Source: Paraspadella gotoi
Lineage: Eukaryota; Animalia; Chaetognatha
Reading direction: 5' to 3'
NCBI GenBank assembly: GCA_051294375.1
Contig: CM119267.1
Span: 9,853,458-9,917,457, forward strand
Length of the DNA: 64,000 nt
Shown here: positions 1 to 63,282 of the stretch, piece after piece
How the letters are laid out: each line of letters begins with the position of its first letter
Numbering within the stretch: position 1 is the stretch's first letter
Program-made: the position numbers and the translations under genes
Notes under the pieces: generated by a model
The model's database searches: none
Seen by the model: only the letters and a program-made list of their open reading frames with translations
Told to the model about the DNA's origin: nothing

Positions 1-3000
1 GGCGTCGACGAGATTGTTGTGCTCGGTTTTTGTGCTGCTCCAAAATCGACTTGGCGCGTTTGTAGCCTTCATCAAGCAGCTTTTTGATCTCTAAGTCAAC
101 CAGTTCTTTCATGGATTCCGCTGAGAAGACGAGCCTAAAATCGAGTCCAAAATAATACATAGGTTAGAGTTTAACCGCATTCCTCAGTCACGACGTACTT
201 CATGGTAAGTCCTCGTCCCCGCGGCATCGCTCATTCAAACAGTCTGACGATTTGCGAAGCGATGAGCGTGGCCGTTTCGAAGTCGGAAGTGGCGCCGGTG
301 CCACGTTTTCCTCTCCCAACGCCATGTCTTCCCCAACCCGACCGGCCCATGCAGACATCGATGCGGGCCAAAAGCCGGCTCTCGTAGTGTCGTACTCTCG
401 GTCTTGCATCTGATCCAATCGAACCCAGCGTCTGACCACGAGGAACGATGGTCACTTTGTTGATCGGGTCGGACTGTGGGATAAGAAAGACGAGTTGTCT
501 CGTCGATGTCTCATGACTTACAAAACCATTGCGACTTACGTGTTGCGTAAAGTAATTTACTATTGTGTGGCCTGCCTCGTGCGATGCGGTTCTCTTAACC
601 GAAAGGTCGTCGTCAATTCGATTCTTCTTTTCGGGCCCCATCCGCTCCTTATCCAAGGCCCATTCCAAGTCTATCATTGAAACAAGTGCTGCAAAAAAGG
701 GAACGCTATAATTAAATATCATTGGGTTACCACTAAAAACACCATAGTCAGTACCGGGCGTTGTCTCTGGCGGCCTTGATGGCTGCCTGATTAACGACGT
801 TTGCGATTTGAGCGCCTAAAAATCCGACAGTCTTCTTTGCCAAATTCTCTGCATTGACTTCGACGCTGTCAGCTTTGATCTTGCTCAGGTAATGGTCAAA
901 CAATTCAGTTCGCCCTATGAACGAGAATAAAGAAGAGAGAAGAGATGGTAGAACAACAAAACTAATCAATTTTAGTACTTGAGCTTCACCTTTGAGATCC
1001 GGTGGCCAAACTTGTACTTCTACGTCAAATCTTCCTGGCCGAAGCAAAGCTGGGTCGAGATTCTCTCTCTTATTGGTGGCGCCTAGAGCGGCGAAAAATT
1101 GAAAGATAACGACAAATGTAAAATTTTAAAATCAACATTTAATATTACCAAAACAACAACTCCTTCCGACTTATTAAAGCCGTCCATCTCCGCCAAAAAG
1201 TTGGTTAATGGTCTGATTGGCGTAGGGATGGAGTTGGGAAGAGGTTCGCTTGGCTCCGCAAGTATCGATCTCGTCGATGAAGAGGACGCAAGGCGCTTTG
1301 GCTTTGGCAGCGGCCAAAGAGCTGTCTCACCCGCTTGGCGCCAGTTCCCACAAATATCTCGTCGAACTCGGAACCGGAGGCGTGAAAAAGGGAACGCCTG
1401 GTAAGGAGGTGATAAATCAAGAACCACAGAATCATAGATGTCGTAGACACTCAGTCAATTCGACTAACCAGCCTCCCCGGCGACTGCACGGGCCAGCAAC
1501 GTTTTCCCGATGCCCGGCTTTCCCACGAGCAAGACCCCTCTCGGCATGCGGCCGCCGAGGGCGGAAATCTTTCGGGATCTTTGAGGAACTCGACTATCTC
1601 GATCAACTCTTCCTTGGCCTCGTCTACGCCCTTAACGTCCTTGAAGGTAACATTGACCTCTTCGGGCTTGACTTCATGCTATTCATGTTCATGGACATGG
1701 TGACGCCACCGGCGACGCCGGATAAACCGTTCCAAAGAAACGAAAGGAGCTGAATTATGATCAACAACGTCACGACGGTCCATAAAATACGGATCACGCG
1801 TTGAACAGGTTTGACACTGTGGGCAAAAACTAAAGAGTTAGCATCATACAGGGACTCCAATCCTTAGTGATACGAAAAATTTTGATTAAACTCGTAATTC
1901 TTTATGTGTATATAATTTTTATAAAATTTATTAGTTAGAAAACTACTTGACGTTTATTTGGACCTAAAAAATGTTTACATTTCCTAACAGTATAATCACT
2001 AGGCCGGAACAGGTTGAAAACTAGAAGTTCTTTCAAATAGATAATAGGGTGGAGTGATGAAAAGATTGAGTGGTTGAACATCATTTTTTTGCTGCCTATG
2101 GACATATATCATATAATTAATGAATTTTAAATCTTTTTAAAAATCTTTTTAGCATAACAGTATAATATATTCAATTATTTATGTAGTAATATCCTTATAA
2201 AATCGTTAAATTTCAAAATAATTTTCTTTTATTTTTATATAAATTGGTACAACCAATATAAAAATTATCCATTCATTTAATAAATAAGCTATCTTGCCCC
2301 TGACTTTGGACAGGCTTTGGTGGTTTAAGGCCTCCATCACTCTTACAAAATAAATGACATAGCAGGTCACTGCAAGCTTTCAATCAAGACTCTCTCACAG
2401 TCTCGTTTATTCACTCCCAGAGTACCTGGCTTCCCTATCAATGAAGTGGTATAATATTTCAAAGAATGTTTCAATTGTATGAAAAGACCACTCCCTTATA
2501 TATAAGTTTAGACTACAGAGAATAAAAAGTTATAAATTTTCACCTTTTTTACCGTTTTAAACGCTATAGATGACATAATTTTTGATAACATATTTTATAT
2601 TTTTGATTTAACTTTTTATGAATTAAAAAAAAATCATTTTTAAAATTTACTATTTTATAAGAATATACAACAAATATATTGTTAACCATAGTATAATCCT
2701 TTTTATTTCGTTGCGATTTAGAATTGTAGAGAAAGTTTTATTTTGTGTGACAAAACAACGATTTTATTAATTATTAGCAGACATGTTTCGACTCTTATTG
2801 CGAGCCATCAGCGCTTTTACAGTTACAGTTGCAAAACTGTAACTGTAAACTTGTCATACAAAATAAAACTTGTTTTCTCGACAAATATATTATATTTTAC
2901 TATTCTGTTCCCGAAACAATATGAACACAATATTTTTTGTACTAGTTAATCATTCTATCTCACATCTAAATATCCTTGTTCGATCATTCAAATAAATTTT

Positions 3001-62900: not shown

Positions 62901-63282
62901 TTCAAATTCCATTTGTATAGCCAAAGTCTACCTTCACGCCAAATTTGATCAAATTTTATGAAGTAGCTTGTGCTGAACAGATTCTCGCTCGAAAAAACAG
63001 CGTATCATTTTCTAATATGAAGCCTTCTGTATATTAAGAAATTTTCCCACCTTTAGTTTTTTCCACGTCAGGATGTCCGGCTTCACCCAAAAGCCTAATC
63101 TTGCACGAGACGGGGATGGAAAGTCCTTTGACCAGCGTCGTAAGAATCAATTTAACTTTTTCCGCCCGAGTCAACAGAGCGGCGCCCATTCCGCCTTTGA
63201 TAGAGTAGGCTTTGGGACAGCCCATATTCACGTCGACGGCGGAAACGAGATCTTCCACCATACGGGCTGCCGCAAGGGCGCG
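59915..63282 (-). CDS. DUS2: tRNA-dihydrouridine(20) synthase with C-terminal dsRBD, 5' exons outside window
   Basis: [65 protein letters not shown]; ds[11 protein letters not shown]...[11 protein letters not shown]. Confidence 0.93.
61370..61764 (+). repeat. Dispersed repeat family A, copy 3 (with AT-rich insertion)
   Basis: Matches 2241-2498; ends ...ccactccc|ttaa, compatible with a TTAA-targeting DNA transposon end. Confidence 0.8.

Follow-up and report, generated by a model that had tools for sequence, protein, structure and literature searches.

Can a single animal transcription unit hold fourteen unrelated genes, or does such a run consist of several smaller operons lying end to end? 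This question is raised by a stretch of 64,000 nucleotides (nt) from the chaetognath Paraspadella gotoi (contig CM119267.1 of assembly GCA_051294375.1, forward-strand positions 9,853,458-9,917,457), called the window below and numbered from its first base. Its 14 protein-coding genes all lie on the minus strand, in the order DUS2, METTL18, LIG1, PAQR, BTB, MRGBP, NDOR1, CTSD, MDN1, CRTAP-like, sarcoglycan (SGCD), zinc finger (ZNF), SNRNP70 and a YME1L-like protease. The original prediction, made from the letters alone, took the run for one or a few very long polycistronic units. We consider it probable that the window holds between two and four chaetognath operons that abut one another and are resolved by trans-splicing, with a core of at least seven genes from PAQR to CRTAP-like. 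For a large part of the run the operon interpretation stands, because a spliced leader (SL) is present on one gene, MRGBP, and RNA contigs bridge junctions between genes; the claim of one giant unit fares worse, as its orientation statistic fails against a genome-wide null.

A spliced leader and RNA across the spacers

The RNA evidence consists of the assembled contigs of one run (X1) from one study, aligned over 40201-60200 and 43560-51600, which wholly include 7 of the 13 junctions between genes. Two other runs (X2 and X3) contributed 4 and 2 short pieces only. X1 contigs skip introns at CT..AC joints, and judged from these joints X1 is spliced RNA. It covers spacers while leaving introns uncovered. 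In four of five bins the depth equals contig depth multiplied by exon fraction within 0.1 (100.1, 71.5, 77.5 and 73.6), and in the fifth 77.5 was expected and 78.9 seen. Because depth tracks exon fraction, introns are essentially uncovered and the cover of spacers does not come from DNA; this arithmetic rules out DNA contamination as its source. Loose contig ends were inspected in 12 of 313 cases in the larger range and in 6 of 7 in the smaller one, the remaining end having been dropped at a repeat.

One of these ends identifies a trans-splice acceptor of the MRGBP-like gene (48006..48008, minus strand). The MRGBP contig continues past 48006 with 16 non-genomic letters, TTTCAATTTGTTTAAA on the mRNA strand, placed right after a TTTTCAG acceptor whose AG occupies 48008-48007. 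Within the window every match to this sequence contains at least two mismatches, and the two matches with exactly two are at chance level. A full-text literature search for it returned one paper, PMC2481426, in Table 3 of which 12 of the 13 SL2 forms of the chaetognath leader, 36 nt long, end with it. The MRGBP leader tail is thus identical to the SL2 3' terminus. By itself this leader makes a chaetognath the likely source of the DNA. The base next to this 16-nt end varies (G or T) among SL2 forms, and the contig presumably halts at exactly 16 letters because the assembly graph branches at that base. At an unpaired acceptor, the MRGBP-like mRNA thus gains a spliced leader of the chaetognath kind, and the trans-splicing that had been proposed from the spacers is now seen in RNA, on this one gene.

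Upstream of the MRGBP acceptor, the BTB contig stops 43 nt short of it, and an ATTAAA hexamer lies at 48038, 31 nt before the acceptor. Downstream, the MRGBP contig ends at G 46443 and the NDOR1 contig starts at 46442, so that the two abut at an AG with zero gap, at what is likely the NDOR1 trans-splice acceptor (46442..46444, minus strand). Neither a poly(A) tail nor leader letters are displayed there. Since all listed leaders end in A and yet the contigs break cleanly, the logic of the assembly graph suggests that leader-joined and read-through RNA coexist at the NDOR1 acceptor; a LIG1 intron at which two contigs overlap by 3 nt is accounted for by the same reasoning. At the start of CTSD, where an acceptor AG ending at 44463 is predicted, the 31 leading contig letters are unreadable because they fall in a stretch skipped as repeat. 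The uncovered positions 48007-48049 and 44461-44574 are holes and carry no evidential weight.

LIG1 intron 3 (57352-57092) appears in X1 in a spliced as well as a retained form: two contigs are interrupted there, and the end of the intron is covered by a contig of depth 6.9.

Contigs join genes at four junctions, two of them directly and two more by length, the existence of a single precursor molecule being a separate question. DUS2, METTL18 and LIG1 share one contig of 3569 nt, unbroken over 57872-60192, which includes METTL18 and both its spacers; by length it would start at the DUS2 exon start 63282 and end in LIG1 at 57091. A contig of 17,979 nt starts in CTSD, and its spliced length via MDN1 and CRTAP-like sets its end at 22910. 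This point falls 34-41 nt into the repeat that follows CRTAP-like, a place at which a contig is expected to stop. Between PAQR and BTB, contigs of both genes enter the same inserted element from opposite sides, their loose ends at 50933 and 50940 marking an 8-bp site that is empty in the window (50933..50940) and occupied in X1. The best-supported core comprises PAQR, BTB, MRGBP, NDOR1, CTSD, MDN1 and CRTAP-like, seven genes over about 30 kb, to which DUS2-METTL18-LIG1 is added.

The element carried by X1 in the PAQR-BTB spacer ends in 11-bp terminal inverted repeats, is flanked by an 8-bp target duplication and represents an insertion polymorphism inside a likely operon spacer; we take it to be hAT-like. 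A related copy of 612 nt with internal inverted arms is found at 9678-10289, in an intron of the protease gene. At the other end of the run, the DUS2-containing contig starts, by length, exactly at the internal exon acceptor 63282-63283, which could be due to alternative splicing or to a leader added at an internal site.

Spacers, base composition and the length of the run

From DUS2 to the protease the stop-to-ATG spacers measure 146, 872, 984, 375, 254, 501, 100, 405, 96, 279, 531, 3713 and 464 nt; on recomputation, all 13 lengths given by the original prediction were right. The first of them, between DUS2 and METTL18, is 146 nt when counted to the second in-frame ATG and 104 nt to the first. 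In raw length, 3 of the 13 spacers do not exceed 250 nt, 8 do not exceed 500 nt and 12 are shorter than 1 kb. The three tightest lie at 96-146 nt. A fourth shrinks to 32 nt after repeat removal, as 247 of the 279 nt between CRTAP-like and sarcoglycan (22705..22951) were recognized by self-BLAST as a dispersed repeat. The 250-bp rule of PMC12460157 is accordingly passed by 3 of 13 raw and 4 of 13 repeat-subtracted spacers. Judged by contig ends, BTB-MRGBP (43 nt) and MRGBP-NDOR1 (0 nt) also fall within it, although not all 13 do.

The dispersed repeat, about 250 nt long, has three copies in the window (22705-22951, 2220-2506 and 61363-61771), 92-94% alike, and the only AATAAA of the CRTAP-sarcoglycan spacer comes from the first of these copies.

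The longest spacer, 3713 nt between ZNF and SNRNP70 (15591..19303), is the likeliest break between units. One third of it (1222 nt) is repeat shared with introns of the window, a lower bound since the self-comparison searched against the window only. The spacers had been described as U-rich on the coding strand, like the introns. This is true of 11 of 13 spacers, in which T exceeds A by at least 0.07; in the 872-nt and 3713-nt spacers, as in five long introns that were tested, such an excess is slight or absent, and it is smallest in the PAQR intron. U-richness is therefore no marker of transcription for the long gaps. Within the 3713-nt gap the coding-strand skew fades above about 16.15 kb, which places no promoter because long introns are also without skew. 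The gap may nevertheless hold one. Its best candidate promoter or outron, on compositional grounds, is a G+C-richer, pyrimidine-rich patch at 15850-16150, 260-560 nt upstream of the SNRNP70 ATG, where the coding-strand T excess stops. An acceptor weight matrix built from 35 cis acceptors found candidates in every spacer, and we discarded it because the RNA-defined MRGBP and NDOR1 sites rank low or not first.

The common orientation of the genes had been given a probability of 1/8192. This value is valid for one chosen window only and is overstated at the scale of the genome. In 2000 simulated genomes of 21,072 genes each, independent orientation led to an expected 1.27 runs of at least 14 genes per genome, with 72% of the genomes holding one; when the published share of operonic P. 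gotoi genes was built in (2151 candidate operons with 5061 genes), the expectation rose to 5.9. As runs of 14 are expected about one to six times per genome, run length is weak evidence, and the signal is carried by the short spacers and the leader.

One unit, several operons or single genes

We propose the following mechanism for two to four abutting operons. RNA polymerase II would start at few promoters and read through several genes. One promoter would lie upstream of DUS2, outside the window, another probably in the 3.7-kb gap before SNRNP70 and possibly one between LIG1 and PAQR. Introns would be removed in cis. Each upstream mRNA would receive a 3' end that coincides with an unpaired, U-rich YAG acceptor or precedes it by a few bases, and splicing of the capped 36-nt leader to this acceptor would free the next gene as its own mRNA. 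Longer 3' untranslated regions (UTRs) and repeat insertions would widen spacers while the unit stays intact. Single precursors, leaders on genes other than MRGBP and the positions of promoters are what we infer here from the contigs and the spacers.

Several points weigh against this proposal. Its RNA support comes from a single run of a single study and ends at about 22.9 kb, the SGCD-ZNF, ZNF-SNRNP70 and SNRNP70-YME1L junctions lying beyond. A leader shared by transcript starts had been named as a check; it is seen at the MRGBP-like start, that is at one of the seven gene starts under the aligned contigs. Contigs of METTL18, LIG1 and BTB cross predicted acceptors leaderless, although contigs drop minor forms. 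Among the aligned X1 contigs none bridges BTB-MRGBP, MRGBP-NDOR1 or NDOR1-CTSD, and the CTSD-MDN1-CRTAP link derives from length arithmetic, not from direct alignment. In repeat-rich DNA, about 416 nt separate the end of the LIG1 contig (53769) from that of the PAQR contig (53352); a contig of depth 88.5 over 53619-53622 in this gap may stem from another repeat copy. Raw distances put just 3 of 13 spacers within the published 250-bp rule. Nor does a leader alone imply an operon, because nearly half of P. gotoi genes are trans-spliced (10,197 of 21,072) and 18% are in operons under that rule, according to the figures given in PMC12460157. Finally, a contig across two genes is no proof of one molecule, since RNA of an overlapping 3' UTR and outron would be joined alike.

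The last two points feed an unlikely alternative, in which most of the genes are monocistronic and trans-spliced. Each would have its own promoter in the 3' part of the gene upstream and a short outron overlapping the 3' UTR of that gene, only the tightest pairs being operons. This overlap of RNA would make contigs run through, and contigs cannot tell it from read-through. Sarcoglycan, usually a muscle gene, fits poorly into a housekeeping unit. According to the counts in PMC12460157 the majority of trans-spliced genes in P. gotoi fall outside the operons called there, and nematode hybrid operons with internal promoters are described in PMC4138322. At the junctions of 96-146 nt, however, promoters inside coding exons would be required, the ending of MRGBP RNA on the NDOR1 acceptor stays unexplained, and one common orientation is not something that such an arrangement itself predicts. 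If trans-splicing is removed altogether, what is left is a compact region of ordinary, separately capped genes oriented by chance. The genome-wide insignificance of run length alone allows this, but we regard it as barely credible and largely refuted already: an AG acceptor is joined to non-genomic leader letters that equal the SL2 end as published, and RNA covers spacers, not introns.

At the opposite extreme, all 14 genes could form one transcription unit of more than 64 kb, with a single promoter beyond the right edge and long gaps made of 3' UTRs and inserted repeats. No opposite-strand gene interrupts the run; 12 of 13 spacers stay below the 1-kb limit applied to Macrostomum operons; repeats that also occur in introns of the window make up a third of the 3.7-kb gap; and the depths of the seven X1 contigs listed lie within 94-392, though such depths cannot rank genes. 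We nonetheless find this improbable. Repeats identified within the window leave about 2.5 kb of the 3.7-kb gap unexplained, a hexamer resembling a poly(A) signal follows the ZNF stop at a distance of 135 nt, chance juxtaposition alone yields runs of 14 one to six times per genome, and the maxima stated in the papers cited below are eight to nine genes. Taken across all readings, a unit of at least ten genes is possible but less likely than not; this milder form of the 14-gene reading would extend from DUS2 to CRTAP-like or ZNF, with 10-12 genes over 40-44 kb.

Chaetognath operons and their mechanism have already been published, and the possible novelty of the window, likely an RNA-supported chaetognath operon region, is size. 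In the RPS14-PCNA operon of Spadella cephaloptera, as described in PMC2481426, three bases separate the poly(A) site from the acceptor, and the bacterial artificial chromosome reported there holds further clustered, co-oriented genes. The window resembles such operons in its SL2 leader end, in its co-oriented housekeeping genes and in upstream RNA that ends, as judged from contig ends, on or beside the downstream acceptor. It differs in that the longest P. gotoi operon annotated in PMC12460157 has nine genes under the 250-bp rule, whereas here up to 10-12 genes may be linked and several spacers measure 254-984 nt. The literature searched, which leaves most subscription papers outside, reports no chaetognath operon of more than nine genes; a term search of preprint 10.1101/2025.01.31.635879 returned no operon or trans-splicing term.

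Elsewhere among animals, stated maxima are seven genes in Ciona (PMC7986045), nine in Schistosoma japonicum (PMC12582326), nine in Macrostomum and eight in Caenorhabditis elegans (range 2-8; PMC8629364), and the available text of PMC11067885 and PMC10282587 gave none. Pristionchus clusters of up to 14 genes in PMC4138322 are a prediction from distance only, with a 3.5-kb cut-off. The ending of MRGBP RNA on the NDOR1 acceptor recalls the Ciona operons and the SL1-type operons of C. elegans without intercistronic DNA (PMC12582326, PMC7986045); the leader is a different one, Ciona units reach six or seven genes, and in the window the arrangement is suggested by contig ends. With nematode and flatworm operons the window shares co-oriented conserved genes and spacers inflated by repeats, as in Macrostomum (PMC8629364), while PMC12460157 and PMC2481426 report no operon-specific leader for chaetognaths. 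Kinetoplastid polycistronic units likewise line up unrelated genes in long arrays on one strand, and their RNA matures by addition of a leader. There nearly all genes belong to one-strand units that comprise tens to hundreds of them, with hardly any introns, whereas the genes of the window have introns and nothing demonstrates genome-wide arrays.

Should at least ten genes share a promoter, the unit would exceed the published chaetognath maximum of nine, and distance rules would under-count operon length where 3' UTRs or repeats widen spacers. A true 14-gene unit of more than 64 kb would go well beyond the eight to nine genes of the longest animal operons in the works cited. There is little chance that many such units exist in chaetognath genomes, cut up by the 250-bp rule, so that an intron-bearing animal would approach trypanosome-like polycistronic arrays. 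The region suits the study of 3'-end formation at zero-length junctions (MRGBP-NDOR1), as well as the questions whether trans-splicing lags cis-splicing and how a housekeeping unit would accommodate a midasin mRNA of 15 kb and a sarcoglycan whose expression is probably confined to certain tissues.

Gene models and further observations

The 14 genes on the minus strand that the original prediction described are borne out by gene models and by Pfam, which supports all of them and finds no gene on the opposite strand. Open GT-AG models (with one GC-AG intron) were built for 13 genes, the exception being the FtsH/YME1L-like protease. None of 96 open reading frames (ORFs) of at least 55 amino acids (aa) outside the gene models, on both strands, has a Pfam match, and searches of the window with Rfam and for tRNAs gave no matches and no tRNAs. 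The run was also said to continue past both edges. This is right in so far as the terminal genes, DUS2 and the YME1L-like gene, are themselves cut; further genes of this strand beyond them are at most a possibility.

All genes below are on the minus strand. The DUS2-like tRNA dihydrouridine synthase (59915..63282) is represented by its last 5 exons, with Pfam Dus and dsrm domains and an open model; its 5' exons were looked for in the window and not found. We take it for DUS2 from this domain pair. The intronless histidine methyltransferase gene METTL18 (58848..59810, ATG at 59768 or 59810) and DNA ligase 1 (LIG1; 54074..57975, 9 exons, 957 aa) are named by homologues and Pfam, LIG1 having an open model and its best named homologues in molluscs (67-70%), which indicates an animal whose near relatives are missing among the named entries. 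The other names, NDOR1 and cathepsin D among them, are ones we assume from our reading of the domains, not from named homologues. A PAQR-family receptor (51000..53089, 7 exons, 346 aa; Pfam HlyIII) has an open model and six RNA joints, and is followed by an intronless BTB/zinc-finger gene (48222..50624, 800 aa; Pfam BTB, open model). The MRGBP/Eaf7-like gene (46937..47967, 5 exons, 223 aa) is supported by Pfam Eaf7, RNA joints and pieces, with its RNA contig end at 46443, and the NDOR1-like diflavin reductase gene (44550..46435, 2 exons, 599 aa) by Pfam and an RNA joint. A metagenome scan with NDOR1 exon 1 returned 9 loci, all distant relatives, none of which has the leader tail or a neighbour gene of the window.

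Further along are the cathepsin D-like (CTSD) aspartyl protease (40242..44449, 9 exons, 402 aa; Pfam Asp, RNA joints), midasin (MDN1; 24333..39836, 2 exons, 5054 aa; Pfam midasin AAA lids and VWA), a CRTAP/leprecan-like gene (22955..24236, 4 exons, 338 aa; Pfam TPR_leprecan), the intronless sarcoglycan subunit SGCD (21662..22675, 337 aa; Pfam Sarcoglycan_1), a C2H2 zinc-finger protein (ZNF; 19304..21130, 5 exons, 516 aa; Pfam) and SNRNP70, or U1-70K (12221..15590, 5 exons, 466 aa; Pfam U1snRNP70_N and RRM). All six of these have open models.

The FtsH-family AAA protease (1..11756; Pfam AAA and Peptidase_M41) contains a 9-kb intron, and its frame runs off base 1. Its 5' exons (11756-10848) are open, and an in-frame splice over the 9-kb intron is possible. 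Among longer proteins, the ORF at 11280-11756 has no homologue that a search could find; that this ORF belongs to the AAA protease is putative, the open in-frame splice being the one reason for it, and the paralogue name YME1L is putative too. A PDB search with one AAA exon matched generic AAA ATPases and FtsH, with the YME1L paralogue not singled out. The 3' exons (1-1700) contain several one-base frame changes, the other 13 genes being open; an unpolished assembly is the likely cause, a decayed copy the other one.

Two introns stand out among the remaining models. The first intron of the cathepsin D-like gene (44398-44319) is of the GC-AG type, as confirmed by an RNA joint. Midasin has a single intron, behind which exon 2 extends for 11.1 kb with a G+C content of about 0.32, compared with about 0.49 in exon 1.

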